A model generated the notes under the pieces. That model worked only from the letters and a program-made list of their open reading frames with translations. It did no database searches and was not told where the DNA came from. This document shows, piece after piece, positions 8,328 to 49,240 of a stretch of DNA of 64,000 nt. The stretch is from Psammoneis japonica. Its lineage: Eukaryota. Every line of letters begins with the position of its first letter. Position 1 is the first letter of the stretch. The stretch spans positions 1 to 64,000 of the forward strand of contig QPGO01000297.1 of NCBI GenBank assembly GCA_008632985.1, given 5' to 3'. A program made the position numbers and the translations under genes.

Positions 8328-8532
8328 GGTTCTTGCTTATTAATATGCTCTCTCTCTCACTTTCCCACTCTTGGAAAATTTATATGTTTCGTTTCCGACT
8401 CAGAATATGAGACGTGCGTCAACTCGTGGTTCACAAACGGAAGCAACCAGTGGCTTGAGACGGGTCTGAACCTGACTGAGAGGCGAACGCTGACCGCAAA
8501 AGTGACAATGGGATGAGAGATGTGTGAGGTTT

Positions 8533-18799: not shown

Positions 18800-18915
18800 G
18801 CACCACCCAACACAAGAGACTGGCTCTCCTTGGCATCATGAAACAAAGCCCATCACTGCATCTGGATGGTGTCCCCTTTCTTCTGCCGGCAACAAAGCCT
18901 GTTTTTCAGCCTTGA
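18800..18915. repeat. Decayed repeat similar to 22125-22205
   Basis: The two sites share ggcatcatgaa..gccc..ctggatgg..caaagcctgtttttcagccttg. Identity of the element is unknown. Confidence 0.5.
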
Positions 18916-21310: not shown

Positions 21311-22439
21311 GTGGTCAGCTGTGAGCCTTGAATGTGGTGTCATTGCTGGATCATTTTGGCAACCAGCCAATTTTGTTGTGTCATTCAGTGCTCCTGCAAT
21401 GGCCACATTCCAGACACACGCACAAACTGCGCACATGCATCTCATGACATTCGGAACCCATGATTGAATGTCTTCTCTCACAAAAGACAAATGATGAGCA
21501 AGGCATTCAAAACACACAAGAATTTGCACATGGCAGCAGGGTGGCACAATGGTGCTGCCAGCTGGGCTTTAGCACACAACATCAAATGCAACACCCAATG
21601 CCTTCTGTTCCAAAACAGTCTCAGATGCACACAAGATTTGTTCTGGGACAGTTCCCAGGACAAAAAATGTGCATTGCTGGTGGGCTGAACTCCCAGCAGA
21701 AAATGAAGGATCTTGCCACATTTTCCATCTGGCACCCAGTTGCAGAAGTTGCAGCTGTTGCTGCATGGAGTGCTTGGCACTGCTCCAGCAGTGCTGGCAC
21801 CCACTTTTACACTCCTGCTGCCTGTCATGGTTCTCACCCAGCAACAAACCAACAGTTTTGAGCATGTCTTGGGTGCTGTGAGGATGTGCTCACTGTGCAC
21901 TCAGAGTCAGCACTCTTGATGTTTGTTGTGTCTGGACATTTCTTGTTTTTCTGGAGCCAGAGCCAGGCAGCCTTTTCAGCAAAGGCTGCAAAAGCCAAAA
22001 CAAGGGGATTTGCAATGACAGTGGAGTCCAAGGGCACACTTGCCAAAGCAAGGGAGTTTGCAGCAGCAATGGAGTCTAAAGACTTGCTTCTCATGGCCAC
22101 CCCACAAAAGATGTTGAGGATCCCTGGCATCATGAACAAATGCCCATTGCTTCTGGATGGGCCCCTTCCTTCCACCAGGGACAAAGCCTGTTTTTCAGCC
22201 TTGGCTGCTTGCAACAATGCTCCTCTGACCTTGTCAGTTGTGAATTGACCTGACTTTCAAGGGCAGCCAAGGAGTGAGGTGCTTGTTGAAAGCAGTGCAA
22301 GAGGCTGAGTTTGTGTTGGCCAACAACATTTCCCATGTCAGCTGCCAAGTGGAGATGACTGGTTGATGATGACAGATGTGAGAGGAAATGATGACCTTGT
22401 GGAGGCATGACTCAGAGAGCAAGCACAGCTGACAGACTG

Positions 22440-23630
22440 TCAAGACTGAAGAAGTTCCAAAATCAGCATGTGCGTGACTGTTGTCCATGCCTCAATGCAA
22501 GTGGCTGGCTCATGTTCCTTGACCTGGGGCTGGGAACTTGGGTTTCTTGGGACTTTCATGTGGCAAAGGTTTGCCTTCAACTGCTTCAAGCATTGGAGCA
22601 TCCCAATCATCCACAGACACTTTGGCAATGCCTTTGTGGCACCATTCAGCAGAAAAGGTGTCACACAGGGCAACCCAGTTGGGGCATGGCAGCTCATGGA
22701 CTGGGACTTCTCCCACCAGTCCAGGAGACAAGGGAGCCAGTGTTTGCAACACACACACTCCCCACCCCTTGGTGTGCTGACAACTCTGCTGCAGTGGAAA
22801 ATTGTTTGATCCTGCAGGAATTTTCCTTGATTCTTTGAGCTGAAGGCCCCAAGCATGAATGCTTCCCTGCTTGCAACTCCAAGAATGTCCCGGCAGTCCC
22901 ACCAAGCACAACCTGGAGAATGCCAAGGCTTGTTTTTTAAAGACCTTGGCTTCACTTTCACCTCAGGTTGCCACCACCACCTTGGAGGCTTTGTTGGAGA
23001 GAAGGGTGTGCACAGCCAATGGCAGGTGGACAAAGCCAAGCAAAAACTGGCCAAGATGACCATCTGCCACCCACAAACCACCTGAGCTGGTCCAAAAAAG
23101 TCACCACAATGCCAGCTGCAGTGTGCACAAGATGCAGTCAAGGAGTGCTGCGGTGAGTGGTTTGAGGAAGCAGAGCACGTGATCCAGCATCAATTTCTTC
23201 CAGTGCCAATTGGTGAGACCTTTGCTGATGACAGTCCAAGACTGTTCCCATCTGCTCTCAAAATCAAATTTGCGAGACTGTCCATTCCTCATCCAATGGA
23301 GTCTGTGACCAAAGCCATGAAGCAAGCACTCTCACACATGCACACATGTGACAGACTCACTTTGTGGCTGCTCCAATTTCTCTTCAGCAGTCCACAAGGA
23401 CACTGTGCATTGAGTGAAAAGTGAGGCAGCTGAGAGGAAATCCAAGTCACATGAGAGCATGGCTGTCAGTGCACCCGTTGATGCTGAATGGTGCACGGAA
23501 CTCTCGTGTGTGCACACCGCGGAGCTCCATGATGTGCTCTGTCTGCGGTGTGGTGGTTCTCCTTGAGACCTGCAAATTTTCCACCAACCATGCTCTTCAG
23601 TGCAAGAAGGGAGAGCCAGTCATCTTACAA
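22440..23630 (+). mobile_element. Decayed CRE-like non-LTR retrotransposon (RT to zinc knuckle)
   Basis: FSRKGVTQGNP (GVxQGDP), WCADN (YADD), HHLGGFVG (RYLGGFIG) and NHALQCKKG. Many frameshifts. Confidence 0.75.
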
Positions 23631-24205
23631 TGAACCCCTTGTCAACCCTGCTGGTCACACCTCAGGAAGCCCAAGCAACTCTGCATTGTTGGTTGCCCCC
23701 CACAGATGCTCCCAGACACTGTGGGGGCGGTGCTGGTCTGTCCCTTTGAAGATGCTGAATGATCTTGCTCAAGCGGGCTCCACTCATCAAGACAAATCAC
23801 TGACCCCTTGCCCTCAGACACTGTTGATGACAAGCTTCCAAGATGACCAAAATCCCACCCAACGCTGTGGTGCTGGCGGTGCCAGAATGCAGTCTCGAAT
23901 GTCGCGCACACAGACACTAAAAAGGCACACGACAACTGCCCCTCATTCGTGCGACTGTGATGCATTGACGCATCATGCAGTGCTCATTTTCCAATTTTCT
24001 TATTCATGCCACACTTGTGGGAATTCTCTTGTTCATAGCCTTGGGCGTGTTCGTTTAGCGCGGAAATGATTTGCGCCGCGCAAATCATTTTGCCGCGCAA
24101 ATGTTGGCCCAACTGGGCAGGTGACAACACACAGCACACAATGCTCAATGCGCCGCGGCTGCACACTGCACACTGCACACAGCACACAGCGAACAGCGAC
24201 AGACC

Positions 24206-25371
24206 ATGGGCAAGAAAAGCAGACGCAACAGGGCGAGAGGCCAGGGGAAATCTACCGGCACTTGCAAACGCGTTCCACTCGAAGAAGTCGATGATGACAC
24301 TTTGAGGCGCATGACGGAGCTCCTTGTCGTCCTGAAATCAACGACCGATCAAATGAGTTTGTTGGCAGCAGTGAATGGCATTTATTCTGCCACTCATGTT
24401 GGCAACGAAGGCACTCCCACCTCAGAGATCTGCGCGGGTGACACTGAAGGCGATCGCGCATCACGGGCTCTTGTCAAAGTCGGCGGTGTTGAGGCGATTA
24501 TCTCCTTCATGCATGAAAATCAACGCACTGCATTGGCAGGCTTGTTTGGTTCGTGTTGCTGCATCCTCAGCCGTGTTTCTGTTTCGGCTCGTGAGGAGTG
24601 CAGCCGAGCAATTGTCCAATCCGGTGGGATTCCGATTGTGCTCGGCACTTTTCGCATCTTCATTAAGAAGTTCAGGGGGGAGGATGGGGGCGTGTATACT
24701 TGCAGATCGGCAATCTCAACAAATCACGCGCTCGACATTTTGTGCAGAGATTGGCTGAACAGCACGTGACTGAAATCCTGCAGGCCGATGGGATCAAAGC
24801 TGTTCTTTCGGTTCTCAAGAACATTTGGCCCGCCGAAAACGCCCCACTAGTATGGTGCCAGGCGATGAAGGTGTTATATCACATTGTCGTGTCAAGTTTC
24901 AAAAATGAAAATGCTCAGCTCCCTTCCATAGCGTCGCAAAAAATCGCGGCCTGCGGCGGCATCCCCACCATTGTGGCACGCATGAAGGATTGCCCCGATT
25001 CTGAAACAATGCAGGGTAGTGGAAGGTACTTGGTAACAGTGTTATGCGATGTTTCAGTTGGTGGTGACCCGTCCGCAGTTCTTGCTGCCGGTGGGGACGA
25101 GGTCATTCGTATGGCCCTCGAGCGCAATGAACAAGAGGCGGCCCCAAGTCCTTCTCTCCGGGAAAGCCTTGCAACTGCGATTGGGTTCATGAACGATGTT
25201 GTTCCTCAGTGTCGCAACTGCGGTAGGCAATCTAAAGACATGATGGTGTGTGACCGTTGCAACACTGCTTGGTACTGCAACAAAAAATGCTTTGAGAGTG
25301 ATTGGCAGAATCACAAGGCTGCGTGTAAGGCTGCAAGGTGGAAGCCGAAGGCTATCGTTGAGGTGGATTGA
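24206..25371 (+). pseudogene. ARM-like repeat + C-terminal MYND zinc-finger protein, frameshifted near 24745
   Basis: MYND motif CRNC..MMVCDRCNTAWYCNKKCFESDWQNHKAAC, and GGIPIVL / GGIPTIV ARM-like repeats. Two overlapping ORFs join if a 'ga' in tgcagagattgg is removed. Could be an assembly error. Confidence 0.65.
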
Positions 25372-26148
25372 TTCATGGTATGTCAGAGGAAAAGTTGTGT
25401 TTGTGATGATTTGTCTTCCCCATGTGGAATGGCGCGATGGTGAAGGAAGAATCGATGTGTTGAGACGTCCCGGCACGAATTGTAGAATCGTTTCATTTGC
25501 TTGGAGCTCGTGACTCGTCGGAAAAGCCGAGCTGAGGAGATGTCAAAAAGAGAATTTACTTGGGTTTGTTTCTATCGGTGAGCTCGGTGTCATATCGCTT
25601 TCATGCTTCGAGCTAGTGTAGATATCTAGAAAGAAACGCACCAAAGCTATCTTCTTTTTCTCTTGTCATACAAGCCATCCTAGATTCTTTACTTGCACTT
25701 AGTTATTTGGAAGTAATCTGCTACCTGTACAGTAGAATCCGGTTCGAATCGAAACCGGAAGAGGTTCACGTCCACCTGTTTGTCTTCCTTTTAGGACTTT
25801 GCCACATCGTACGGTGTCGTTATGTAATGTCTTCTCTCTACTTTTTCATAACATTTAACTTTTCACTGTTGTTTTTACAATTTTGAAGCGACAACCTCGC
25901 CTCACATGAGAGAAAACTCTTTGAGCAGGTGTCGACCATGTTGCTCTCCGATGCAAAACGGAACCAGATAGGCCTGAACCCTGAACGATTCGTTGGAGAA
26001 TGCAGAAGCTGCAAATAATGGCTGCTTGGCTGCGGGCATTGGCCGCCATCCTTTAACTATTCAAGTTATACGTCAAACCAAGCAGCACCGAAACGTCTTG
26101 TTCGGTGTGGATTGACACTTTAGTTCTTTCTATTTTAAATGTCATTAT

Positions 26149-27970
26149 CTATTGCAGTGCATTCATTTCCTTAAGCTCCTTCATTAACGACAGCTGTAAT
26201 GTGACGGGCGCATTCGTGTTGGCGGCAATGGTTCCGCTGGCCGCGACACCTGGGAGTCCGATACCCGGGAAAGAGCTATCCCCACAAGCATAGATATTTT
26301 CAATTGGAGTCATTGCACCTGCCAGTTGCCAAGCGTCCTTACCAGGATTGACTCCCGAATAGTTCCCTTGTAGCGCTGGTTGTACCTTCGATGTGTCAAG
26401 GCAGCACCAATCAATGACTACGACACTACCTGGTTGCTTCGCTCGTTCTCGAACATCGGGAATGACGCACTCAACAGCTTTCCATGATGCCTCGGCCTTC
26501 TGAGCCTTGAGTTCTTCACAACCTTCTTTCTTGTTGCAGGCTTGAGAAGTGCCAGAGTTTGGACTGGAGCCAACTTTTCCAGTCTCGTCCTGAAACTGCA
26601 CCCAGCAGGCATGTGCAATGTGACAGCCTCTGGGAGCGAGACTTTCGTCGACGACTGTTGGAATGGAAATGATGGACATGTTTTGTTCATCAGTCACAGG
26701 ATGGTCAAAATTCAAAACCGAATGGTGGCATTCCAGTTCTGGCAGCCCTTTGCTGGGAATGCCCAGGTGCAGATGTGAACAAAGATCTCGTGCAGCTCAT
26801 TTCATCCACTTGTGTTTCTGAATTTTGTGGCGCACCTTTGTTGTCGGGTTCTCAGCACCATCTAGATTGACTGAGTCTTTTAGAATTCATTCACAACTCC
26901 GAAGAGGTGCATTGCTGACAACTCCATGCTTGGCCTTGATCTTGGTGCCGTCCGACAACATCACTCCAATGCAACTTGGTTTCTCTGATTCTTCATCAAA
27001 CAAGAATCACTCAACTCTGCCATTTGTGCGCAGCTCCCCACCATGATTCTTCACTCCCTTGACAAGTGCTTGCATGAGAGAATCCATTCCACCCATGGGA
27101 TGGTCCAAAATGGCACCCCGCTTGTGCAGGCCGGACATCATGCATGCGACTGGAGCTCCTTGTGTGTTGGAAGCATCCACTCCAGAGAGGGCAAGGCCAA
27201 GCAGTTGAACCATTTGCAAAGAAAGGGGTCCTTAAGATCACATGGGTCAGCCACATTTGCAAACAGGCCAGTGAGAAGCAAACCCTTGGTTTTCAATGCT
27301 CGTCAATTTGAGCGGGCACTGAAACATGGAAATCACAGCTCCAATCCCCCCCCACGAAGAGCAAAAGGAGGAATGTAAGCAAACACTTGAGCCAGCCCAC
27401 CCTCTCCCAACATTTCATTTCTGAACTTTTCAAATGCCTTTTGAGGCTCCGGTCCTGCCTCTTCTTCAACGGCATTTTCAAAGTCACCACTGTCTCCTGC
27501 TGTCATCTTAAATGCCTTGCTGTCTGCACAGTGGCAGGTCAACCAGCCATCACATTGTTTCTGGTCAACATCATTCATGGCTCCAATTGCATCCAGCACC
27601 TGTTGCAAAGGGTTTGTGCTCTTGGGTGACAATCCAGTGATCAGCGACAGGCCAGAATCAAAATGAAACAGAACATTGTTCTGGAAGTGGTGCTGCACAT
27701 GGAAAAGGAATGAGCTGCACCACTGGGTGTGTTGTGTGCCCAGAAGCAGACAGCTTCAAAGCCACACTTGGATGTCAGAGCACCACAATGCAACCCACTG
27801 AAACCAGCATCAACCACAATTGCATCCACCACCTCTTCATCCAGGCTCTCATTTGATGCAGAAAGCCAAGATGGAAATGAGTGGCTCCACCTTTGTTTTG
27901 GCAGCACAAACTCCTTGACAGAAAGAACAGCCAGCACAAACCCCAGACACCTCTGCAATGTTGTCAACAT
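26149..27970 (-). pseudogene. Carotenoid isomerase / phytoene-desaturase-like FAD oxidoreductase, copy 1 (3' end normal in composition, 5' part hypermutated)
   Basis: VDAIVVDAGFSGLHCG (degenerate GxGxxG), HNTPSGAAHSF, FDSGLSL, PMGGMDSLMQAL and YACGDSSFPGIGLPGVAASG, plus a signal-peptide-like N-terminus. Has stops and frameshifts. Confidence 0.8.
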
Positions 27971-30153
27971 TCCTTTCCTTTGACAAGAAAGATGCAGATG
28001 TTCGTGTGTCCTTTTTGTGATCAATCCGTCTGTGTGGTGCGATGCTGGCAAAAGACTTTGTTGTTTTTCTTTTTAAAAAGGAGACAGGAGAGAAAAAAAG
28101 AGTGACATCTTTGTCATTCATTTGTGTGCTGGCTGCAACTGAAGAAACCAATTGTTCAGCCTGGTGTTGGTGTGACATCTAGACCCACAAGCCAAGAACA
28201 TTTTTGCAACACCATGTGGCTCAGATTTGCACCATGACCTGTCCACACCATGCAAATGCAGCCAAGTGCTGTTCACCAAATGACACTTCAATTGATTTCC
28301 CAAGAAGTTGACAATCAAACACAAGTTGACAGACAGACTGACAACAATTGTTTGTGGTGCTCTCCTGTGCAACCTCTGTGCAACAACTCTGAGAGCCACA
28401 ATGATTGCCAACCCTCACCCCAACAATCATCGTGAATGTCTTGGCTGCAAGTCTTCCTCAACAAGCAACACATTTCAGATGCAATTTGCCTTTGAGCCAA
28501 CAGCAACATCCAGAGGAACTGAGCTCTTTTGTGTTGTTCCCACTGCAGTGGCTGCTGTCAGGGCCTTTGTTGGGGGGGCCTTTTCTCACTGAAAAGGAGT
28601 GCCAAACTCCATTCTGTGGCATCTGTCCGCTGTGTGACCCCTGAAGTTTCAACATGCAGAGACTTCACATCCAGCAATGCAAGTTGAAACTGTCAAACAA
28701 GATTCTTTGCCTGTGGATGATCTCATTGGATTCTTGTCCACATTGGAGGCATTCCATTTCATGGTCTCCTTGTGTGCACCATTGTTTTGCCCTTGGCAAG
28801 TTTCATTCTGGCCTTCTGCTTTCTTTCCTTGGCATTTCCAGATGGCAGTGGAAAATTGTGAATGAGTTTCACTCTGGTCTTTGTGACCTGCATGGTTGCG
28901 GCCCAAGTGACCAGCAAGTGGTTCTTGCCAACAGAAGATGGGCAGGGTTGTCCTCTTTTTCTGGTTTGACTCATCTTTGTTCATTGACAGTGGCCAGTCT
29001 GTTGGTTTGACGAAAGCTGCAATCGTGCCACCTGAATTCACAACACTTCTGGCAGGTGTCTTTGTTGTCTTGCTCAGGCAGCATGCTGCAGTGCCACTTT
29101 TCAACCTTCTCATCTTTTTAAAACATGGCAGGTTTGTGCCATTTTGTTTTTGCACTGTGTCTGTCAGAGGAACATTTTTGTGTTGCAGCATTTCTTCCCA
29201 CACAAAGTTGTTTGGAGGAAGACACAAAGCACGCTGGCAACAACAGATGTGTTTTCATCCTGGGTGAGAAACTTTTGGACACATCACGAGGTTTTCTACG
29301 TGTTTCTACATGAGACGTACATTTAGCACCAAAAATCTTAGTAAAAAACGAGCTCCATGACAGCAAAAATATATTTTTCCATGTCTCGAACCACAAACCA
29401 CAATTCGCGCAAACCGAAAATGGCACCATGCCGTCGCCATGAACTCGTCCATTCTTACACCAACGGATGTTGTGACTGAGAAGGTGAGAATGCCGAGACA
29501 GGTCAATGAGACAACGCTCAGTGCGATGATGTGGTTGAAAATTTGATCTTTGTTTTTTGTTGTGCCTCATGGATGGCCTTTTGACTCATGACATTTTTGA
29601 TGCCTCTTTCTCTCTTCCTCAGCTTGCGAAGTAGGATTCTCATCAACGCGCTGCTCCATCTGCTTGACACCGGACACTGACAACAAAGAATGTTTCTATG
29701 ACACGTTGCTGTGATTCTTATGGTGCATCGTCCGCACTTTGAGTCGTCATGGACGATGCTTTTGGGTCGCGCGACAACATCAGATTTCGCTGCCGACAAG
29801 AGAATCGTTGTGTGTTCGGTTTTGAGGGTGTGTGAGGATAAAGAATCTCAGATGCAAGTGTGATAGTTTCATTGTTGTAAAGCAGAACAATGCCATTAGC
29901 GACATCTTAGTGTTGCAGCCATTTCATTTTATTCTAAGACAGAACTGGTCATTTTGAGCGGTGAAATTTTGTCAACATTTCATCTTTAACTCTGCTTGGG
30001 CATGTCAAATCACACAATGACCAGACACACATTGAACTTTGATGCTGCCATTTCAATCCCATTGTTTCACTCACTCAAGCATCCCACACAGGTCGACAAA
30101 TCAGTCGATCTTTGAAATGGCCGATCGCGCAAAAAAATCACGTGCGAAGTCAG

Positions 30154-30458
30154 TTCCCCCGATTTTTCTTGTGCAAACAATGGAGTTAGAACGCCGTTCT
30201 TTTTTGGTGTGAGCTCTTTGTACAATGAACAATGCACACATTCTTTCAAAGCAGTCAGATTCGGTGAAAGAAACAGTGGAACAGTCTCTCAAATGCACCA
30301 GAATGACAACAACGAGCAGACAGCTGTCAGTTTCACTCCAAAAAATGCCGCTTTTGAGACAGCGCTTTTCTTGCACGCACCCTTCAACCAATGAGAATGA
30401 CGGCTGGCTTTTCAAAATAAACATGTCTGTGGAAAGAAGAAACAAAAAATCGGGGGAA
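30154..30458. mobile_element. Possible MITE bounded by a 14-bp perfect inverted repeat
   Basis: ttcccccgattttt (30154-30167) and aaaaatcgggggaa (30445-30458). No clear TSD. Confidence 0.4.
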
Positions 30459-30903
30459 AGTCCAGTCAGATTTGCTCGCACAAAAAGCACGGCGATGGAA
30501 AAGGGACAGACGAAACGTCTCACCTCCGTGTGCGCGTTTCTCACCTGGGATGAAAACACATCAACATGACTTGTTTGAAAGACAGTCATTTGCAGCCCCA
30601 ACTTGGCATGAGCCAAAAAGTCTGGCCTGAAGAAGTGCCCACAGTGCCGCAGCCTCAGGGCACTGCCTTTCAACAGGGTCTCACCAGCTGGGGCAGATGA
30701 TGGCACGGCTTGTTCTCTTCTGTTCATTTTGCAGATCTTTGTTGTCAAATTTGAAACAAACCAAGGAACAGTGCACAGTTCCATTGAAGTTGTCTGGCCC
30801 AAAAAGGAAAAAAGTCCAAATGATTGACTCTCTCTGGCATGTGGTGAGCCACGGCAACTGTGCACCACAATGTGGCAAATTTGTTGGAGAGAGGTGAGAA
30901 AGG

Positions 30904-31960
30904 GTGACAGCCATCAGTGGGATGAGGGAATCCATGGGTTGCAACCAGACTCAATGCTGCCACAATGGGGCTTGCCTCCTTGGGGCCATGGGCATCCCCA
31001 CAGCCAACAAAAGGTTTGCTGCACACCTTTTGAGTGCAAGAGGGGATCCCATTCATTTGCAACCAAATGGAGCACAAGACCATCAGATGTCTCATCTGCC
31101 AGTCAGACACATTGACACTGGAGTGTTGGTTCCAACAGCTGTTGGGGGCATCCAGCTGGGCAGTCTGAAAACAGAAGGTGATGCACTGACAGCTTGCAGC
31201 CCAGCCATCTCATCTCACTCTCCTCTTTCCCAATCAAGACAAGTGCCTGCAATCCAAGCACCCCCTGGACTCTTTCAATCAACTGCAGTCCACTTGCAAT
31301 CCCAAATGTCCCCTCCAATGTCTTTGCCCTGTGGGCTGGTCACCACCAATGGAGCAACAACAACAAAAACAACCAACCCTCACCTTCCCCCCCCTGCGAA
31401 TGCATTCCATCCTCCAATCTGGGTGTCGCCACTTGCAACAAGAATTGCAGCGGCGGTCTGTCTGTGCAGTTGTTTCTGTGCATGTTTTGTGCTTTCATCT
31501 GTCCCACTCTGTGGCCTTGCAACTGTTGAGGCTTTCAACACCAAGGCACTCTGTCATGGGGACATCAAGCCTGAGAACATGATGCTTGCAACAGGTGAGA
31601 AAAGGTTGGTCATTGCAATTGATTTTGGATCATCAGCCAAATGTGGGAATGCCTTGACATCCACAACACTGGGCTTTGGCTCAGATCTTCCCCCCAAGGC
31701 TTCACTTTCCTGTGATTTGGCATGCCTTGTGACAGGGTGGAATCTGCCACCAATGGTGCTTGACTTGTGACAACAAATTGCGGGGATGCCGTCCCTGTCC
31801 CCAGCCCTGCATGTTGCAAATCTTTGCCTGTCAAACCACAATGACATCAATTTGATCTGGAGAAATGCAACAACTTCTTTGGAAGGTGTTCAAGATGGCA
31901 ACATTGATGGCTCCCTGCTCGTTGCGCATGAGTCCTTGCAGCCAGTCAGGGAACAACAGG
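30904..31960 (+). pseudogene. Decayed protein kinase gene
   Basis: HGDIKPENMML catalytic loop and IDFGSS. The 288-aa ORF has no Tyr and lies in a TpA/CpG-depleted domain. Confidence 0.6.
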
Positions 31961-32493
31961 GGTGAGAGATGGGTGCATGCCGGTGCCAGTGAGTTGTGGA
32001 CAGGCAGTCAGTGACAACACTGTTGATGAACAAAAGCTTGTTTCACACGGGTCTGTTGTGCTGTGTCATTGGAAAGAATGAATGACTCAATGCTTCAGTG
32101 GCTTGCAGTCCATCTGCCTGAGCGGGCTTTGACGATGCCTGCAGCAACAGCTGGAGCACATTGCACCAAGCAGTTGCCAAGAATGACAATGAAGACTGCA
32201 TCAGCAACTCACTGCCCAAGCATGCCCAGGGAGCTTGGAGCAGAGTGTCTCACCCCTGTTGGAGCCATGTGTGCAATCCTGTGTGCAGAGTGTGGTTTTC
32301 CGTGGCTTGTGGCTGTTGTGCGATGTGCCAATGACCAAAGCTGCTTTTTCTTGTCATCTCTTTATTTCTTCTTTTGCTGAAGATCTTTTCTTGGGACTTT
32401 TTTTTTTAGTTGGAGTTGTGCATTCAAACAGTGTTGAGGTGAAACAAAAGAGAAGAGCACCAAGGAGAACAAGAAAGAAGCACTCCATCATTG

Positions 32494-34860
32494 TCTGTTG
32501 AAGTGCACTCATTTTCTTGAGCTCTTTCATTGGCGACAGCTGTTGCAATGGTGTTGGTGGCAATGGCTCCACTGGCCGCAACACCTGGGAGTCCATGACA
32601 CCTGGGAGTCCACGACACCTGGGAGTCCACGACACCTGGGAAAGAGCTGTCCCACAAGCACAAAGATTTGCAACTGGACTCGTTGCACCTGTCAGTTCCC
32701 AAATGTCCTTGCCAGGATTGACTCCCAGACTGCAGGTTCCCTTGTGTCACTGGTTGTGCCTTTGATGTGTCAAGGGAGTGCCAATCAATTCGACACTGCC
32801 TTGTCACTTTGCTTGTTCTCAAACATCAGGAATGACACACAGAGTTTGGGCTGGAGCCAACTTTTCCAATCTTGTCCTGAAACTGCACCCACTCGTCAAA
32901 GCCATCACTGGCAGCCATGTGGGCAAATGCAATGTGACAGCCTTTGGGCGAGACTTTTGTCAAAATTTGTCAGAATGGAGACAATGGACATGTTTTGCTT
33001 GTCATTCATGGGGTGGTCAAAATTCAAAACTGAGCTGTGGCATTCCAGCTCTGGCAGCCCTTCTTTGGGAATGCCCAGGTGCAGATGCACACAAAGCTTC
33101 TCTTGCAGCTCATTTCATCTGCTTGTTTCTGAATTTTGTGGCACGCCTTTGTTGTTGGGTTCTCAGCATTGTCCAGATTGACCAGGTCTTTCAAAATCCA
33201 TGTGCAGCTCCAAAGAGGGGAATTGCTGACAAGGCTGACAACTCCATTCTTGGCCTTGAGCTTGGCACTGTCCAACAACTCCACTCCAATGCAACCTGGT
33301 TTCTTTGATTGTTCGTCAAAGCAACAATGACCTTTTGGCTCTGCCATTTTCATGCAGCTCCCTGCTGTGATTCTCCATTCCCTTGACAAGTGCTTGCATG
33401 AGAGCATCCATTCCACCCATTGGACAGTCCAAAACCATCCCCAGCTTGTGCAGATTTGACACATCATTTGCGCAACCAGAGCTCCTTGTGTGTTGGAAGC
33501 ATCCACTCACAAGAGAGGGCAAAGGCCAAGCCATTGAAAATCATTTGCAACAAAAGGGGTCATCCTTGTGTTCATGCAGGTGCATTGCATTTTTAACAGG
33601 GCCAGTTAGAAGCAGACCCTTGGCTCCAATGCTCGTCAATTTGAGTGGGTGCTGAAACACGGAAATCACAGCTCTAACCACCCACTGAGAGCAAAAGGAG
33701 GGATGCAAGCCAACACTTGATGCAGTCCACCCTCTCCCAACATTTCATTTCCAAACCTTTCAAATGCGGCCCTTCAAGATTCCGGCCCTGCTTTTTGTTT
33801 TCATTGGCCTTTTCAAAGTCACCGCCATCTCCTGCTGTCATTTTAAATGATGTGTTGCTGTCTGCACAGTTGCAGATCAACCAGCTTGCATCATTTCCTG
33901 TTGACATTGTTTGCAGCTCCAACTGCATCCAGCACATGATGCAACAGAGCATCCTTGGAAGCGGTGCTGAGTCTGGAAAGGGCCCATCCTTTTTTCCAAA
34001 ATGTCCTTTTTTTTTGCTGTTGGCAAGCCCAATGTTTGCATGTGGACATTGACGTGTGTCACATTTGGCAACCAATGTCAATGCATCATGCATTCATGCC
34101 ATTGCAACAATTGGAAAATGTGTGTTGTTTGTGTGTGCATGGGAGCAGTTTGATGATGACAACTCAAATTCTTTTCCACTGCTTGTCAAAACACAATGAC
34201 AGCGGCGACCGCAAATGCAATGCGCTCCATCAACAACCACAACCTCAACATCACACTGACATGTGTCAACATTTTGCAATCAGTTTCATGTGCACATGCC
34301 TTGCTGTGCTTTGAAATTGATTGATCGCATTGAAAACAGCTGAAACATTCAATTTTTTGCCCGTCGCTTTTTGACTGCACACAAGGCTGCAGCAGTGCAC
34401 CAACAGCAAGCTTCTTGCACTGAAACTGAGTCATGCTTCAGTGGCAGGGCCGGCAGCAAATAAAAAGGTGATTTGGCAGAAAAAAAACAACTCTCAGTGG
34501 AAAGGGGGTGAGGAGCTGTGCCACTGGGTGCATCACATGCTTTGTGATGGTGTGACAAAATCACTGGTCAATCTCATGTTGCATGAGGCACCAGCTCTGT
34601 CAAAGACAGGAAGCACGGTGCACCTCTTTTTGCTCCTGTTTTCATTGCCAAGCCGACAGTCTTAAAGCCACACTTGATTGAACATGAGGACAGCGCCACA
34701 AGACAAAAAACCATCAAAACTGGCACCAATCACAATCACATCCACCGCCTCCTCCTCCTTGCTCTTGTCTGGTGCAGAAAGCTGAGATGGAGACGAGCGG
34801 CTCCACTTTTGCTTGGGCAGTGCAAACTCCTTGACAGAAAGCACAGCACCAATGCAAACC
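32494..34860 (-). pseudogene. Carotenoid isomerase-like gene, copy 2, fully hypermutated, with an insertion at ~33950-34430; its 5' end and upstream region are displaced to ~37305-37490
   Basis: Collinear alignment with 26149-27940. 37305-37490 aligns with 27945-28130. Confidence 0.8.
32581..32641. repeat. 17-bp tandem repeat, about 3.6 copies (acacctgggagtccayg)
   Basis: Read directly. Copy 1 of the gene has a single unit at ~26246-26270. Confidence 0.85.
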
Positions 34861-35702
34861 CCACAGTCACATCAGAGCATGCATTGCAGTGGTTTCCACT
34901 TTCCTTTGTAAATTTTTTAATGTGGGTTGTAAAAATTGTCAACAGTGAGAATTTAAAAAATGCTGGCAAAAGTGCTCAACAAAATGCAGCTGTTTTGTGC
35001 ATTTCATTTGATGTCTCATCAACTTTTCTTGCATGAGCTTCAATCAAATGCGTGCAATGTTTGATTTAACAGGGATCGAAAACCACATTTTGTGATGCGT
35101 GGTGTGGTTTCCTTTTGATTGCAATCGATTTCAACTTGGTTCAAACTTTGTCCTCCTCACTCACGTGCGCGTGTCTTTGCACATGTGCAGTCTGCTGGAC
35201 ATGCAGTGCTTCATGCACACACGTGACCCACCTTCATTTTTCTTCGTTTCCCAGATTTGCACAGCCCGTTGGTCTGCGGCATTTTCAGCACATTTTTTAC
35301 ATGCGCATTTTTCTACACACTTCATGACAGTGCATCCTCTCCCCAAAATTTGAAAAACAAGAGCATGCACTGTTGTGACACACGTGGATCCTGCGTGTTG
35401 TTGCAAATCTGCAAATCAACAACCGGCCATGGCGGTGAAAGACATCACCCCATTGGCCGACAACGGCGGCTCAACATGTGGTGAAACCTGCTGTCCTTCT
35501 GGTTGGTCAAGATGGATTTTGATTCGGGCGCTGCTTGAGTTTCATGGTTGCAAGTGTGCTGTCACGAATCTGCTGCATCCAGAACACTGAGCTGCTGGCA
35601 TGTTGTTTTGTGCACGCACGTCACAAACTCACTTTTCTGCAGTGCTGGTGCAATTGTGCATGTCAGAGTTTTGCATCCAGAATCATCACAAGTTGCCACA
35701 AA

Positions 35703-36950
35703 TGACACTCTTCAAACAAGGCATGTGCAGAAAGAGGTTCATTGGTTTTTAATGCATTCACTGACAACGCATCTGTCTTCTCCAATTTCTACATCAACAT
35801 CCAGAAATGCTGCAGGTGGTGCTTGTTCCTGCAGCTCTCAGAATCACGCGCATGAAAAGTTCTTTGCTGTGTGTGACACTCTTCAAAAAAGGCATGCACA
35901 AAAAGAGCTTCATTTGTTTTTTATGTGTTCACTCATGTTGCACCCGTCTTCTCCAATTTCCACTTCCAGATCCAGAAAGACTGCCACCTTTGTGGCTTCA
36001 ATGGAACTTTCCAACATGGCATTCTGACCATTGCTGTCTTTTGCGCTTGCTGCTGTCATCTCCAAATTCAGACGTCTGGCTCGGCAATTGCTTCGGCTGT
36101 TTGTTCTCAAGAAGAAGCAACATTGCAAGTGCTGAAGGTGTGAACTGCACTTGATCACCAAATCAACAGCTCTGACACATGCTCTTGTTTCATCGTTGCC
36201 ATGTGAGTCAATGTTGGCTTGGTCTTGTCCATCCACTCCCCATTCAAGCTTCATTTCAGGAAGTTGACTCTTTGTGGCTGTGGTCTTTTGTGATTTGTGA
36301 CAGCAACAGGAGCCCCCGACACTGGAGACATTCTTCTGCTGTTGTCATCTTTTGCAGTGAGACGTGAGCTGTTGAGGTGTTCTTCTTCTCTGCATGTTTG
36401 AACAAAGCACGTCATTGCACTCAAGAACAGGCAACATTGCAAGCAGCCTTGTGAAGCAAGGCAAACTTGGTCATTGCAGCATGACGTCTTACACCGTGCA
36501 CCAGCATCCACATTGCTCCGGAATCAGCGGTGCCGGATGCACCGATGCACCGGCAAGTCTGTGTTGCGGTTCATGTCAGTTCATCTGCCTTGTGCTCTCA
36601 CAATGTGCTCCACACTTTTTGGCAATGAACAAGGTTGATGTCAGAGCAACAGCACTTCTGCTGCAAACTCGCCTGCTCCAGAATCAGCGGCGTCGGATGC
36701 ACTGGCAAGTCCATGTTGCCGCTCCTGTGTTCCACTCTTTTTGGCAATGAATGAGGTGGAACAGAGCAACGGCAATTCAAACAACATGGAACAGCAGCTC
36801 CTGCCACAAATTGGCCTACTCCAGAATCAGCAGCATGGGATTCACCGGTGAGTCTATGTTGCGGTTCCTGTTGGCAGTGTTGGTTCATCTGCACTGCACT
36901 CTCACAACACATTCTGCACTTTTTTGGAAATGAACAAAGTGGCTGCCAGC
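35703..36950. repeat. Decayed repeat-protein relic: two 171-bp-spaced units (35703, 35874) and three ~150-bp units (36518, 36677, 36821)
   Basis: tgacactcttcaaa..gtcttctccaattt..atccagaaa occurs twice, and cc(g/a)gaatcagc..ctttttgg(c/a)aatgaa occurs three times. Confidence 0.55.
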
Positions 36951-37785
36951 AGTGGCACTCCAAGAAAGCAAGCTGCAACTGCTGCTGCAAACTTTAGGGT
37001 GTTGTCTCTGTCAGTGTCATTTAATTTAAATGCAAACAACAAAATAGAATGTTCATGGCACAATGCAAATGATTTTAATTTGCAAGTTTTGCAGGGACAG
37101 AGGGCTGGCACTCTCACAGGGAAAACGTGTCCCTGTTTCATGGTGAAACAGGGGGTCCCATGGCATAAAATGTTCATCTATCATAGTTGACATGTGATTG
37201 CCAGCTACACAACTATCAAGGTTTGAAACAATGGAATTTTGTGCTGCAACAGCTGAAAACATTGCTGTGAGAAAGGTGCTCTGTGTCACTGCAATTCGCG
37301 CTCTGATGCACCTCTGCACTGTGGCTCAAGATCCCTTTCCTCAGATGAGAAACATGCAGATGTCGATGCATGCTTCTTGCGATCAATCAGTCTTGTAGTG
37401 CTCCAACATGCCATGCAGACAAAAGCCTTTGTTGTTTTTCGAAAAAAGAGACGGAGAGAAATGAGTGACGTCTTTGTCGTGTTCATTCGCGCGCCATAGC
37501 CGCAACTAAAAAACCGAAAAAGATGGGGTGGGTGACGTCCAGACGTTGAGATCTTTTTGTTTTTTGCGTTGCGGGTTGCGGGCTTCAGGCTGTTTCACGA
37601 TGTGCCAATGAAGTGCATCAAATGAAAGATAGTTGAAAAGTCGTCGCATGGATCGATTCAAACGAGTTATAAGACGCGAGGTGTGGAACAGCACAGTGGT
37701 AAGCGGTGGAAGAACGAATAATAGAGAGCCCTTACACCTTACAGTCAGTAGAAAAAGAGAGCGAATCAGCAGAGTTGTTTGAGAA

Positions 37786-38748
37786 ATGACAAACTGCAAG
37801 GAAAACGAGCTGCTTGGCCTTCCCCACGAGATATTCTCTCATGTTTCCGGCTATCTGCCAGGTCGTTCTTTATCCACGTTCGCCCTTGCCGTTGTACCAT
37901 GTAATCAAAAAGATGCCAACACGGTTGTCTACAAGATGATGGTTCAAGCTTACCAGCACTGTACAACCTATCTCGAGGACGACGCCCCATCAGAGCTTCT
38001 CGCTTGTTGGAAGCTCTTGTCGAGCGATTTGTTCGCTCAGGGAGAAAACTTGCTTATTAATATGCGAACGCTATCTGAATGGTGCGCGGTGTACGACTAC
38101 TGTATTGGTTGCCCACGTATTCTGTCCGAATTTTATCAGGAGGAATTCAACAATAACGCTACTCCCGAGAGAAAGTGTTGGTTGTTGGGCGGGGGCAACG
38201 TATCAACGGTAGGCCTTGATGGTGCTCCTCCTGCTGATAATGAACAAAGGCGTCCGACAAGTCAAGCTGTCTTTTCAAGTCCCAATTGGCGACCCGAGCT
38301 GTTGCGGTTTGCAGAGCAGTGGTTTACCCCAAACATGCATCATGTGCAGAGTGCTTTTCCTCTGTGGCCACAGACCTTGATTGAAGACGGGTCCGCAGTT
38401 GGTTTTGTGTCCTGGAAAGATGGAGCAGCTTTAGAAAGTGCACACTCGAAGGTTGACATTGCTGCTGGCATGGTAGTGTGGCAGCGTTTTAGTCGAAACA
38501 TGGTTTCAGATCTTGTGTGGATACCGCGAGCAACGCGCCAGATTCATGGCAGAGCATTAACGGCGGCTATTGACTCTGCCGGACTTGCGTGGATGTCAAA
38601 GATTGCAGCTTATGACAAACACATGCTTTGTTCGTGTGAGGTGGAGGAGGAAGCAAATGAGACTATCGCGCCAGGCGACTTTGTAGATAGTGGGCAGTTT
38701 GTGCAGCATTTGATGAAGCTTCTTCGAATGCTAGAGAATTTGTGGTAA
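37786..38748 (+). CDS. F-box-like protein
   Basis: 320-aa intact ORF with N-terminal LLGLPHEIFSHVSGYL. Confidence 0.6.
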   Translation: MTNCKENELLGLPHEIFSHVSGYLPGRSLSTFALAVVPCNQKDANTVVYKMMVQAYQHCTTYLEDDAPSELLACWKLLSSDLFAQGENLLINMRTLSEWCAVYDYCIGCPRILSEFYQEEFNNNATPERKCWLLGGGNVSTVGLDGAPPADNEQRRPTSQAVFSSPNWRPELLRFAEQWFTPNMHHVQSAFPLWPQTLIEDGSAVGFVSWKDGAALESAHSKVDIAAGMVVWQRFSRNMVSDLVWIPRATRQIHGRALTAAIDSAGLAWMSKIAAYDKHMLCSCEVEEEANETIAPGDFVDSGQFVQHLMKLLRMLENLW

Positions 38749-39499
38749 ATTGCTTCGGCCGGCTATTGGATTGGTGTGTGCTTCTTAATCAGTTGTCGCA
38801 GACTGTGCAGGTTGCATTGGAAACGAGGCTTTTCTTCTGCTGGTATCACGCTCGTAATAACTTGTGAACGAAATAAACTATTTCTACATCATGCCCCCCC
38901 CCCCCCCCGAGCCATTGATGAGAAGGAGTTTTACCTGATTATTCTAATACGAGTTGAAAATGTAATTTCGATTTCACCGCGTAATTCTTGGCAACATTCA
39001 ACCTCACGTACTTGGTGCCCAATTGGAATGAAATTTGTGCCTTGTTGCGGGGAAAAAAGAGAGTGCATGGCAAGACACATGAATCTCTGCAATTGCCATG
39101 GATGGAATTCACCCGGAAAAGATTGTGCGTTAGACAGCAATGAAATTCCCATCATGTTGCTCCCTGTTACAGAGTGGAACAACAGACGTTTCACTCAGCT
39201 TCTTCATCATGGCCCAAACGGCCACCTCACACTTGGTGACGACACCGCCAATCTTCCACGGCATGGCATTCTTCTTGGCAGCACCTGCCAACATGGTTTC
39301 ATGCAGGTGCCTCCATGAGAACCCCTGTCTCTCTGACCAAGAAGTTGTCCACAAGACCAACGATTCAGGTTGTCACAAAATTGCCTGTGTGCATCATTCA
39401 CAAATTGTCAAGGATGAGGCTGTTGAATTTTGTCTCAAGCAAGTGACTCCAGCAGGGAGGCCACCGCGAAAAAAAACATCAACAGCAGTGTCCCATCAT

Positions 39500-46189: not shown

Positions 46190-47440
46190 CCATCCTCCGA
46201 ATGCATGATCACCTGAGGCAACGGTGGGTCACCCAAACTGTGGTGAGGCTCATTCTTGCATTGACACAGCCACATGCTTCAGAACATGTCTTTTGCCACT
46301 CATCTGACAGCTTCGATGTGATCTTGCACAGCATCACCTTGGCTTCCTTGCCAAGAAGCACTGGCCCATCACATGACACAACAAAGGGAGTGAAATGACG
46401 GTGTTGTTCAAGACAGGGCTTGAGGTGCTTGCACTTTTTCTCATGTTTGTGGTTTGCTGGGACTTCTTCGTCTGGTGTTTTGGACACCAGGTGTGACTTC
46501 GCATCCGCATCAGGGGTTCGAACATCCGTCACCATGTCTGTCCTTCCATCCCAGAATCTCATGCAGAGAAGGTCTCCACAATCACCATCGTTGGACTTGC
46601 TGGAGTTTGTGTTTCCTGGGGAACTGTTGGGGGTGCTTGTGCTTCCTGAGATGTGTTCTGTGGGATTGACAAGGTTCGTCGCATGTGCAGGAAGGTTTGC
46701 AAGCCTTGCCCGTTGGGTCACCCAGGATGAGCTCAAGCTCTGCCAGGTGGGACCTCGCACTGCTGAACTGTGACATTGACAGGTTTTTTGGATCATGCCG
46801 TGTGTTGCACATGTGAATGGCTGCATGACTTTTGTGGAATTGTGCATCCTTTTGTGGCACAATTGTTGTGCCATCCATTCAACAACTTTCAATGTTTTTG
46901 TTCTGCGCCATTCTTAAATGTCTTGAGAATGGTGCAGGGCAGGTGGATTTTCCAAAACTGAGAGTGCAGACAGGCATGAATGTGCTGCAAAATTGGTCAT
47001 TTGATGTTGAAGATGAGTGCACCTGCAAATTAAATTCTTGCACTGTGGAGCTTGCACGCAGAATTCTGCTTGCCCAATGTCACACGAGCCCCACCCAGGC
47101 AGGAATGGAACCCATCCCAGGTTGTCACACACTTCATGATGTCGTGAGATGAACAGGCCACCCTTCTTGCACTGAAGGGCATGGTTCATGAAGAATTTGC
47201 ATCCACATCCATCACAGTGCTCCGAGAGGTCCGATGGAGTGCTGCCACACCGCAGGAAGAGTGCGCCACAGAACTCTTGGCACGAGAGTTCTGTGCCGTT
47301 CAAGTGTCGAAGGGCATGCTGACACCCACGCTCCAGTCTTGGTTCTGCACTTGACAGCTCTGGCCTGGAGGTCAGGTGGGGTCCTGAAGATTGTTTTGAG
47401 GGTCTCCTCCTGCACTTTAACCTTTTGTCAGCTGCTTCAT
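46190..47440 (-). mobile_element. Decayed CRE-like non-LTR retrotransposon 3' region (zinc knuckle + restriction-like endonuclease), split by a MITE
   Basis: CDGCG..NHALQCKKGG..RHHEV, then GDLL..FWD..DVRTPDADAKS..HEKK.KHL.PCLEQ.RHFTPFVVSCDG..GKEA..NARMS. Confidence 0.8.
46728..47114. mobile_element. ~386-bp MITE family, copy 2
   Basis: Aligns with 16725-17110. Flanks acccagga / tcccaggt. It interrupts the DNLG-D motif of the CRE element. Confidence 0.75.
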
Positions 47441-47809
47441 GTTTCACTTCATGTGTGGTGCCCTTGACTTCTTGTTCCAGACTCAGGTGCGCACTCACAC
47501 AAAAAATGCCCCTTTTTGCATGAAACGTGCAGTCCAAACTTACGGTGCAATTTTCAATGGTTAAAATGTCATGATCTTCAAATGTGTTGTCATGGGCACA
47601 TGCAGAAAGATCTCTCATGTGTGTGCCCATGTGCAAGAAACTGAGGATGGACTAAGTTGTTGATCACTGAATTGCACCGTAAGATGAGAGCTCCTTTTTC
47701 CAATGAGCAATTTACAACTGCACCCATGTGTTTGTAAACAACATCAATCATTGTTCCAATGCAACAACATGCTCTCAAATGTGACACAAATGATGTTTTG
47801 TCTGTTTGG

Positions 47810-48191
47810 TGGGTTCCAGTCCTGGGCGGCACTCCGTGTGACATTTGCCCCGCAGAATTCTACGTGCAAGCTCTGCAGTTCACACTCTGGGCAATGCACA
47901 TGTTTGTCTTCAACACAAAACAAATGACCAAGTTTGTGGCACACATGTCCCTGTTCCCACTCAAAGTTTTGGAATTTGCCTGCCCTGCACCATTGTTGAG
48001 ACATTTAAGAATGGTGCAGAAGAAAAAACATTGAAAGTTGTTGAATGGATCGCCCAACAATTGCAGCATAAAATGACACAAAATGTTGCCAAAATCACGC
48101 AGAAATGTGCGTGCGCGACATGCGACATGATTCAAAAAACTGTCAATGTCACAGTTCAGCAGTGCAAGGTCCCACCCAGACCTGGAACACA
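47810..48191. mobile_element. ~386-bp MITE family, copy 3 (inverted)
   Basis: tgggttccagtcctggg...cagtgcaaggtcccacccagacctggaacaca is the reverse complement of copy 1. Confidence 0.75.
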
Positions 48192-48699
48192 TTGTTCATT
48201 TGAGTGCTTGATGAGTTTCCAAACACGTGAGAAGAAGTGAAGCTCAGCGCACAATGGTGTTGACTTCAGCCCTTTTTCACTGTTGAGGAAACATGCATGG
48301 AAATGGAAAAGAAGTGCACCTCAGAGGCAAATTGTGAGTGAGTTGGGGCTCAATTGTTGGTGCTGACAAATTGAGTCTTCTTGTGCCATGCTGCAGCCTG
48401 CATCAAGCATTTTCATTGTTGTGGTGGATGCCACAGACTGTGTTGAATGTTGCGGTCTTCATCATGACATTCAATTTTCCATGAGGTTGAAAAAAGCGGG
48501 CCGTCATGGTCACTGAAAGCCATGGCCGTTTTGGCTGTTTGTTGGCTCAAATTTGCTCTGTTCATTTTTTACTTGGAAGCTGCTGTCAATGTGATCATTT
48601 AAATGAAATGTTGACGATGTTGCACAAAGCACAAAATGTTCATTTTTTGTGCGAAAATGGGCATGAGCGCACCACCTGAGTCTAGAACAAGTCCCTTGT

Positions 48700-49240
48700 G
48701 GGCTGCGGAACAGAGCTGGGAGCGGCCGTAGAGTGAGTCGATCATGTGAGAGCATGTGAGGGCACTTGCTTCAAAGTCATGAGCTGCAGACTTTGTTGGA
48801 TGAGGGATGGATGGCACCGAAAATTTGATTGGGAGGGCAGGCGGGGCCAGTCTTGGGTCGTCATCAGCCAGGATCTGTTGCGCGTTCTGTTGGCAAACGA
48901 CTCACCACAGTCCTTGACCACACACTGAACATGCTGCCACTGGTGTTGCAGAGACTTCTGCAAACTGGCGCAGGCAGTCTGGGGGCAGTGAGTCGCAATC
49001 TTGGCAAGTCCTTGGACAACCGAGGTCCAAAACTCGGCTTTCATTGACTGCTCAGCAGTTGGCAATTGCAAACTTTTTCATGTCGGGCAGTTGGTCGGGC
49101 AGTCCGTCTGAACTCAAGATTGTCCCTTGGATTTTGGAACGGCATGGTGGGTTGTTCAGTGCAAATGAACTGCTCGTGTTCGCACAGTGATCATTGGGAA
49201 CATTGGAGGTTGTGGGGAAATCCCAAAAAATCGACATGTT
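48700..49240 (-). mobile_element. CRE-like RT fragment, upstream part of the 46190-47440 element
   Basis: WTSVVQGLAKIA..PQTACASLQKSLQHQWQHVQCVV matches PQxAYAxLQKSLQxEWQxxQRV. Confidence 0.65.

Follow-up and report, generated by a model that had tools for sequence, protein, structure and literature searches.

The genome of the diatom Psammoneis japonica contains a 64,000-nucleotide stretch (assembly GCA_008632985.1, contig QPGO01000297.1, positions 1 to 64,000; hereafter the window) with seven blocks in which the dinucleotide TA has nearly vanished and CG has become scarce. One of these blocks holds most of two duplicates of a carotenoid-isomerase-like (CRTISO-like) gene, both of them dead, with an intact reading frame in neither. 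We consider it highly probable that these dead duplicates were subject to region-restricted hypermutation at the DNA level, in which TA was converted near-completely, and CG less completely, to TG or CA. The evidence comes from a comparison of the two copies with each other, with their unmutated outer ends, with orthologous proteins and with a third homolog, as well as from the edges of the block and the bases flanking each lost dinucleotide.

Depleted blocks and two dead CRTISO-like copies

Taken as a whole, the window has observed/expected ratios of 0.34 for TA, 0.67 for CG, 1.45 for TG and 1.46 for CA, averages that mask two distinct states. In a 500-bp profile, normal DNA shows TA at 0.4-1.1 and CG at 0.7-1.4, while the depleted blocks have 0-2 TA in each 500 bp and ratios of 0-0.4 for CG and 1.7-2.1 for TG/CA, with the GC content of affected DNA staying at 0.45-0.51. 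The block from 26430 to 37250 (10,810 bp), for example, contains 62 TA and 196 CG against 2,356 TG plus CA. TA drops sharply, by a factor of about 10, at several change-points (26430, 44720 and 53550 among them), whereas CG changes in a softer step, which at 7 of 12 block edges falls within the TA edge; at the left edge of the 26430-37250 block the two change-points fall at 26430 (TA) and 26660 (CG). Windows with low TA and normal CG occur, for example at 16501-18000, 30001 and 61501, while the converse state, with TA present and CG low, was seen once only, at 36901-37200, on the right edge of the same block and adjoining the unmutated upstream segment listed below.

Open reading frames (ORFs) with clear Pfam domains lie in normal DNA (permease, methionyl-tRNA synthetase, LRR/F5-8C proteins, MYND finger, DUF2269, FG-GAP, GTPase and GT49), and no transposon or viral Pfam domain was found in the depleted blocks in a search of 150 of the window's 153 ORFs of at least 110 aa together with 120 depleted-block ORFs of 70-109 aa. 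As TAA and TAG are impossible in TA-free DNA and only TGA can close a frame, long false ORFs arise, and the six frames of 9.5 kb (window positions 26000-35500) yielded 125 stop-to-stop ORFs with a length of 50 aa or more. Gene callers would over-predict in such blocks, and homology searches fail on them. The blocks and the parts of the duplicated unit are the following:

About 1-500, 16300-24700, 26430-37250, 39000-40900, 44700-49300, 53550-56600 and 61000-62000: the seven depleted blocks, from the TA/CG profile and its change-points
26430..37250, unstranded: TA/CG-depleted block of 10.8 kb, enclosing copy 2, the larger part of copy 1, repeats and a kinase-like remnant, from the profile and its edges
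26142..27945, minus strand: copy 1, a pseudogene of a diatom CRTISO-like (phytoene dehydrogenase-like) gene, found by tblastn of the diatom protein P0001
26149..26430, minus strand: TA/CG-keeping 3' end of copy 1, outside the depleted block and with two frameshifts, from TA/CG counts and change-points
32488..34863, minus strand: copy 2, a fully depleted pseudogene, from blastn to copy 1, codon fates and the alignment of the copies (A1)
33945..34649, unstranded: insertion in copy 2, some 700 bp long by comparison with copy 1, seen as a gap between blastn pieces
27948..28149, plus strand: mutated copy of the gene's upstream segment, with 73.6% identity to 37309-37515 by self-blast
37309..37515, plus strand: upstream segment that stayed unmutated, on the block's right edge, by self-blast

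The gene is identified by its similarity to diatom proteins. P0001 (608 aa) matches copy 1 at 64% identity over 410 aa (tblastn, E = 9e-166), with the match spread over three frames and covering residues 31-608 of 608, and an ORF on the minus strand at 26149-26796 matches 160 proteins, the top one again being P0001 (74% identity, E = 2e-94). The best-matching proteins are from diatoms, under the source names phytoene dehydrogenase-like, carotenoid isomerase (Nitzschia inconspicua) and prolycopene isomerase (Seminavis robusta). The orthologs carry precomputed annotations of PF01593 and PF13450, while ORF fragments of the window copies fall below every Pfam threshold.

Both copies are visibly decayed. 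Copy 1 has two further frameshifts at 26361-26444, within the part that keeps TA and CG, and frame 0 of its 3' end reads LIGAALTHRRYNQRYKGT, flanked by frame-2 stretches. Copy 2, which aligns to copy 1 in three colinear blastn pieces of 74-77% identity (about 76% overall), is broken by TGA at Arg171 and Arg509, by the deletion of the equivalent of 26470-26553, by the insertion, and by CAG in place of the stop TAG. The unmutated segment at 37309-37515 sits 2.4 kb beyond copy 2, past high-copy repeats, and is probably the original promoter side of copy 2, since split off by those repeats. The gene and its upstream segment were probably duplicated together in tandem, and repeats were inserted afterwards.

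Substitutions, their direction and their context

A first-pass annotation of the window had pointed to the 3' end of copy 1 as keeping TA and CG where the counterpart in copy 2 has lost them. The counts bear this out, with 14 TA and 15 CG in 26149-26440 (292 bp) versus 0 TA and 6 CG in 32494-32840 (347 bp), and all nine changes that it quoted are found in the two sequences, namely ttaagc/ttgagc, agctat/agctgt, gcatag/gcacaa, ccttacc/ccttgcc and tgtacc/tgtgcc at TA, and ttcgat/tttgat, ggcggc/ggtggc, ccgctg/ccactg and gcgac/gcaac at CG. In a MAFFT alignment of the two 3' ends (A1), with 52 substitutions in 306 aligned sites, none of copy 1's 11 TA is kept in copy 2 (8 CA, 2 TG, 1 other), and 3 of its 18 CG are kept (7 TG, 7 CA, 1 other), TG or CA having replaced 24 of the 29. 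Counting by dinucleotide context, as the annotation had suggested, we found changes in 26 of 29 TA/CG dinucleotides, compared with 68 of 271 among the remaining 14 types (Fisher p = 8.5e-12). Counted site by site, the changed fraction is 28 of 63 inside TA/CG and 24 of 243 elsewhere (p = 2.9e-9), the latter a divergence of about 10% at which none of the 11 TA survives. These counts also agree with its statement that both dinucleotides converge on TG/CA, which they do on both strands.

Two further internal controls lie outside the coding sequence. The 8 CG of the unmutated upstream segment (37309-37515) have become 5 TG, 1 CA and 2 other in the mutated copy at 27948-28149, and its single TA has become TG. 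For CG, a repeat of about 380 bp provides a comparison: its copy at 16730-17113 has 21-23 CG, of which 7 are kept at 47811-48186 and 4 at 46743-47117, the rest being mostly TG/CA.

The direction of change was set by residues invariant in all 12 orthologous proteins (alignment A2). Among the 13 invariant Tyr codons covered in the depleted part of copy 1, 9 are TGY, 1 is CAT and 1 is still TAC (27377), where Y stands for a pyrimidine; two (q237 and q250) were excluded as unalignable because of local frameshifts. None of the 12 codons that could be aligned in copy 2 has escaped conversion (7 TGY, 5 CAN, N being any base). Over both copies, depleted DNA thus holds 23 informative Tyr codons of the invariant set, of which 22 are converted (16 TGY, 6 CAN) and 1 is kept, while Tyr530 and Tyr534, in the undepleted part of copy 1, are still TAC. 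The invariant Arg codons q509 and q511 read CGA in copy 1 and TGA or CAA in copy 2; q171 reads CAA and TGA in the two copies, and q312 is AGA, unchanged, in both. At the stop position copy 1 has TAG and copy 2 CAG, and all ortholog proteins end there in Leu-Gln (LQ). A metagenome scan with P0001 alone gave no orthologous locus, while a scan with alignment A2 gave 15, used for composition only; the orthologous diatom loci from metagenomes have ordinary TA (0.55-0.72) and CG (0.44-1.04).

Additional polarity comes from reads. Contigs from three runs of one sample, which may be the window's own source, were compared with window positions 25000-38000, and over 25000-27740 they contain a third homolog of copy 1, including the 3' flank 25441-25637, at a depth of 45-58 in run X1. 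No form other than this homolog occurs in run X2, whose coverage is patchy; its contig there is 1,952 nt long and shows 109 differences across 26139-27236. The third homolog is about 88-90% identical to copy 1, is apparently intact in the part that could be judged, and is not among the members of the P0001 cluster. Since the unique genic DNA at 37280-38000 has a depth of 59 and no variants, it is probably a paralogous locus rather than the other allele. Positions without a listed difference were taken as identical to copy 1; among the differences listed, at least 20 separate the third homolog from copy 1 in 26179-26373, and it matches copy 2 at 11 of those 20. With the third homolog as the reference, and again among the differences listed, six TA (26150, 26172, 26185, 26262, 26291 and 26371) are altered in copy 2 alone, as are 7 of the 10 CG common to copy 1 and the third homolog, while at 26277, 26340 and 26295 copy 2 agrees with the third homolog in having TG or GA. 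The proposed direction, from TA/CG to TG/CA, is thus upheld by the 12 orthologs and by the third homolog, with the reservation that two of the nine quoted examples (TA at 26277 and 26340) probably have the wrong polarity. The opposite possibility raised in the first-pass annotation, that an outgroup would show TG/CA to be ancestral, holds at the three TA sites 26277, 26340 and 26295 and fails at the rest.

The copies were mutated after the duplication and separately from each other. Their depleted parts differ by 243 substitutions in 1,248 aligned sites, including 38 TG/CA doublets (the next class, AT/GC, has 10), and of the 8 Tyr codons that were converted twice, once in each copy, 4 ended differently in the two. 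The changes are strand-symmetric at the scale of 300-bp windows, in which the variance of z for TG minus CA is 1.2 in depleted and 1.4 in normal DNA; action on one strand per patch, with runs of TG or of CA, was rejected for want of over-dispersion in this measure. Furthermore, each repeat unit has an outer end that escaped mutation although the partner of that end was mutated (26149-26430 versus 32494-32840, and 37309-37515 versus 27948-28149). Block edges that cut through repeat units in this way mark the process as regional and in situ rather than bounded by homology.

The survival of TA in TA-depleted windows, relative to normal windows, varies over a 25-fold range with the flanking bases (R being a purine), and three flank classes differ strongly (chi-square p = 3e-12):

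YTAR: TTAA 0.33; CTAA/TTAG 0.17; CTAG 0.15
Mixed flanks: 0.10 to 0.035
RTAY: GTAC 0.021; ATAT 0.014; ATAC/GTAT 0.013

Because RTAY holds two targets and YTAR none, this order fits a change of A to G at 5'-TAY-3' on either strand, and the outcome is as predicted (YTAY to TG, RTAR to CA) in 12 of 15 unambiguous contexts. About half of the context-specific changes run from A:T to G:C. The survival of CG, on the other hand, is highest in GCGC (0.82) and CCGC/GCGG (0.71) and lowest in TCGA (0.27). The faster loss of CG with A/T flanks fits spontaneous deamination dependent on local melting, and this dependence on A/T versus G/C differs from the purine/pyrimidine rule at TA.

The first-pass annotation had further taken the target to be a host metabolic gene, and the process not to be limited to transposons. 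The affected copies are indeed of host-gene origin and not transposons, and upstream non-coding and unique DNA is mutated as well. The wording "host metabolic gene" is overstated, however, since copy 1 is frameshifted even where TA and CG are retained, and the targets are two dead duplicates in a repeat-rich, gene-free block of 10.8 kb. The limits of the process are regional: whatever lies within such a block gets mutated, and the data do not show targeting of functional host genes.

Read support, repeats and other remnants

The depleted sequence is reproduced by k-mer contigs of run X1, which match it with 0-4 differing letters per contig of about 1 kb at a depth of about 60. This excludes an assembly artefact, although the sample itself could be peculiar. 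Miscalled modified bases in the long-read assembly were considered and rejected for now, as the k-mer contigs, from the same sample and at a depth of about 60, give the same letters. The stretch 30642-33679 is unique in the reads (depth about 60), yet fully depleted. Outside the block, the bin 25000-25433, with the MYND-finger gene, has a depth of about 160, which suggests a segmental duplication, and a single N stands at position 980. Other features of the block and of the window are these:

29246..30562, unstranded: high-copy element of 1,317 bp with 27-nt terminal inverted repeats (arms 93% complementary), inserted in the block
34114..37151, unstranded: high-copy repeats between copy 2 and the former upstream segment, depth 1,000-5,600
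30898..31767, plus strand: decayed protein-kinase-like remnant (Pfam Pkinase E = 3.4e-4, below the family cut-off)
32581..32641, unstranded: tandem repeat within copy 2, 17-bp unit, 3.6 copies, 97% matches (Tandem Repeats Finder)
22567..23612 (plus strand) and 46200..49041 (minus strand): decayed remnants of one retroelement family related to protein P0125, from a database search with the ORF 46212-46913
16730-17113, 46743-47117 and 47811-48186: dispersed repeat of about 380 bp in three copies, the first in a zone of low TA and normal CG and the other two in a retroelement remnant

The summed contig depth of the element at 29246-30562 is 8,000-10,000, versus about 59 for unique DNA, which suggests a copy number on the order of 150. 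It retains 23 TA and 58 CG, is less mutated than its surroundings and looks younger than the mutation of the block. Within the high-copy repeats, the window has CA at 35461-2 and 35585-6 where the majority of high-copy repeat contigs have TG, and the insertion in copy 2 is also partly repeated in the genome (depth 159-1,063 in bins 33680-34547). The kinase-like remnant, in whose translation HGDIKPEN...DFG is visible, is unique in the reads (depth about 60) and is probably another host-gene pseudogene.

Elsewhere in the window, the ORF at 46212-46913 matches the C-terminus of P0125, a protein of 1,051 aa with a reverse-transcriptase domain, and this is the only such link from the depleted blocks. 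Remnants of this type were missed by Pfam, which we attribute to their mutation load; by eye, Tyr of the relative reads Cys in them. An ankyrin-repeat ORF on the minus strand at 17032-17742 (Pfam Ank, E = 7e-19) has only 2 Tyr in 237 aa, and its region, 16300-18240, forms a shoulder in which TA is depleted (2-6 per 500 bp) and CG is normal; it may be a gene that is still live and was grazed by the TA process, or else a young pseudogene. The repeat copy at 16730-17113 was considered as a pseudogene of this ORF and ruled out, as it is a dispersed repeat that merely abuts the ORF and has its other copies inside the retroelement remnant.

Mechanism, alternatives and known systems

In the explanation that we favour, the window, nuclear DNA of a Bacillariaceae-like diatom, alternates between normal gene-bearing DNA and gene-free blocks under region-restricted mutation. 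Both dead CRTISO-like duplicates were caught in the block at about 26430-37250 and mutated in place, independently and after duplication, while the 3' end of copy 1 and the segment 37309-37515 lie just outside it and so preserve the unmutated state. The TA component would be a change of A:T to G:C at TAY in silenced, repeat-rich domains, and the CG component ordinary deamination of 5-methylcytosine in the same domains. For the TA component, enzymatic deamination of adenine in DNA (A to inosine, read as G) in silenced chromatin is a tentative suggestion, by analogy with what has been proposed for the chlorarachniophyte alga Bigelowiella natans (Mettrop et al., bioRxiv 2026, doi 10.64898/2026.01.13.699255). 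More broadly, it is quite possible, if short of probable, that diatoms have a DNA editor restricted to chromatin domains that deaminates adenine in 5'-TAY-3' on either strand, of the same kind as the chlorarachniophyte TpA hypermutation. Such an editor would form part of a conserved or convergent genome defence across algae of the SAR group (stramenopiles, alveolates and Rhizaria); acting to saturation and together with CpG decay, it would erase silenced islands, including duplicated host metabolic genes, and shape the turnover of gene families.

Several observations weigh against this explanation or narrow its base. At 5 of 12 edges the step in CG does not fall inside that in TA, and 36901-37200 has 8 TA and 1 CG, so the link between the two components is loose. 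The TA at 26277, 26340 and 26295 are probably gains in copy 1, at 26277 and 26340 by G to A, and the third homolog, being known from listed differences only, is an incomplete reference. The baseline of the flank rule consists of mostly coding normal windows, which could shift the expected contexts, and the outcome rule is drawn from 15 sites only. Silencing, cytosine methylation and deamination are, moreover, steps that we infer.

The presence of duplicates in the mutated DNA (the CRTISO-like copies, the retroelement remnants at 22567-23612 and 46200-49041, the repeat of about 380 bp and the high-copy repeats) would also be expected of a homology-triggered process like repeat-induced point mutation (RIP), whereby duplicates are recognised and both copies mutated, with leakage between linked repeats. 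Many diatoms, furthermore, have a DNMT4 related to fungal RID, of unknown function and with no mutational process described in the part of that study available to us (Hoguin et al. 2023, PMC9998398). We nevertheless judge such a process unlikely: the outer ends of both repeat units were spared though their partners were mutated, the read-unique stretch 30642-33679 is fully depleted, the third homolog still has TA/CG at shared sites despite its identity of about 88-90% to copy 1, and the half of the changes that run from A:T to G:C are beyond a cytosine methyltransferase or deaminase. A slower alternative, passive decay without a dedicated enzyme, would combine 5-methylcytosine deamination with an intrinsic mutability of TpA over a long time in silenced, poorly repaired chromatin. 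The dependence of CG loss on A/T flanks is that of spontaneous deamination, and the blocks lack genes and have had time to lose their similarity to proteins, yet passive decay seems improbable: the loss of TA is near total, with 0 of 11 kept at a background divergence of about 10% in the same stretch. The block's ratio of TA to TG plus CA, 62/2356, implies a forward rate tens to hundreds of times the reverse transition rate, and neither the sharp edges nor the 25-fold survival range with flanks favours it. In B. natans, additionally, the signature arises within hundreds of generations and in some lines only (doi 10.64898/2026.01.13.699255).

As A to G at TAY and T to C at RTA are indistinguishable by sequence alone, the chemistry might instead be directed at thymine, with a modified T (e.g., 5-hydroxymethyluracil) at R-T-A pairing with G and giving T to C. 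In dinoflagellate DNA, 5-hydroxymethyluracil is enriched at TpA; for the diatom we think this route improbable. Among the papers listed by a literature search for diatoms together with this base, most dealt with dinoflagellates. Least credible of all is that no mutation took place in situ and that the blocks are foreign or selected sequence with native avoidance of CpG and UpA, or an artefact of sequencing or assembly. Joint under-representation of CpG and UpA occurs in many viruses and mRNAs, but host-gene pseudogenes and upstream DNA are here converted site by site relative to orthologs and paralogs, the depletion goes far beyond what selection gives, and independent k-mer contigs give the same sequence.

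Among known systems, methylation-driven CpG decay (in vertebrates, in plants and in diatom elements methylated by DNMT5) shares with the diatom case the change of CG to TG/CA in repeat-rich, gene-free DNA and the faster loss with A/T flanks, CG here being converted at 14 of 18 sites between the 3' ends and at 6 of 8 in the upstream segment. It has no effect on TpA, whereas here the loss of TA is stronger, and its edges sharper, than the loss of CG. Hyper-editing of double-stranded RNA by ADAR likewise changes A to G with a preference for U/T on the 5' side, but it acts on RNA, while here promoter and intergenic DNA was changed in place; ADAR favours a 3' G, and the favoured 3' neighbour here is a pyrimidine. 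Very-short-patch repair in Escherichia coli depletes CTAG, a TA-containing palindrome driven to CA/TG by a bias at the DNA level, and differs from the diatom case in being a side effect of bacterial mismatch repair with a tetranucleotide context and a modest magnitude. RIP, in Neurospora and other fungi, is similar in its silenced blocks, its context-dependent and gene-destroying transitions, some spread to adjacent DNA and the logic of genome defence. On the other hand, RIP makes only C:G to T:A changes, mainly CpA to TpA, and so creates TpA and lowers GC, while here TpA is destroyed; moreover, the mutated tract in the diatom does not follow repeat units, and unique sequence is mutated too. 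To our knowledge, RIP-like mutational genome defences are textbook matter for fungi only, where they are cytosine-directed.

The closest counterpart is the TpA hypermutation of integrated viral regions in B. natans (Mettrop et al., bioRxiv 2026, doi 10.64898/2026.01.13.699255), taken here from the part of that preprint available to us. In mutation-accumulation lines, 231 of 302 nuclear point mutations fell in two integrated viral regions, almost all of them A to G or T to C and every one at a TpA, with a rate about 1000 times the normal; it was in some lines only that hypermutation occurred, and an ADAT2-like protein was proposed as the editor. Coding sequences with low TpA were enriched for reverse-transcriptase and DDE domains, and affected regions lose annotation. 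Both cases share the conversion of TpA to TpG/CpA on both strands (here 10 of 11 TA between the 3' ends and 22 of 23 Tyr codons) and the confinement to discrete regions (here seven blocks in 64 kb with TA steps of about 10-fold). They differ in that B. natans belongs to Rhizaria and has single-copy inserts of nucleocytoplasmic large DNA viruses (NCLDV) and virophages as targets, whereas in the diatom duplicated host genes are lost. The mutated DNA of the diatom includes retroelement remnants in two blocks and high-copy repeats in a third, as well as host-gene pseudogenes and unique DNA. Depletion in B. natans is mild (Rho TpA 0.45 in the NCLDV region) versus about 0-0.1 here, and its mutation rates were measured directly, while the diatom case is known from its footprint in the sequence alone. 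The available text of the preprint makes no mention of a CpG component, a flanking-base rule, host-gene duplicates or diatoms.

Within the literature searched, there is no report of a TA/CG hypermutation signature in diatoms, and TpA-directed A:T to G:C hypermutation has so far been described in this one 2026 preprint and one rhizarian alga. A saturated footprint in a diatom extends it to an ecologically dominant algal group, in which the mutated unit is a chromatin-like domain and not the repeat, and in which duplicated host genes can be destroyed as bystanders. Additionally, the much stronger loss at RTAY than at YTAR is a rule that any candidate enzyme must reproduce. The diatom case is of the same kind as the hypermutation of B. 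natans, to which it adds the flank rule and the behaviour of the domains as new observations.

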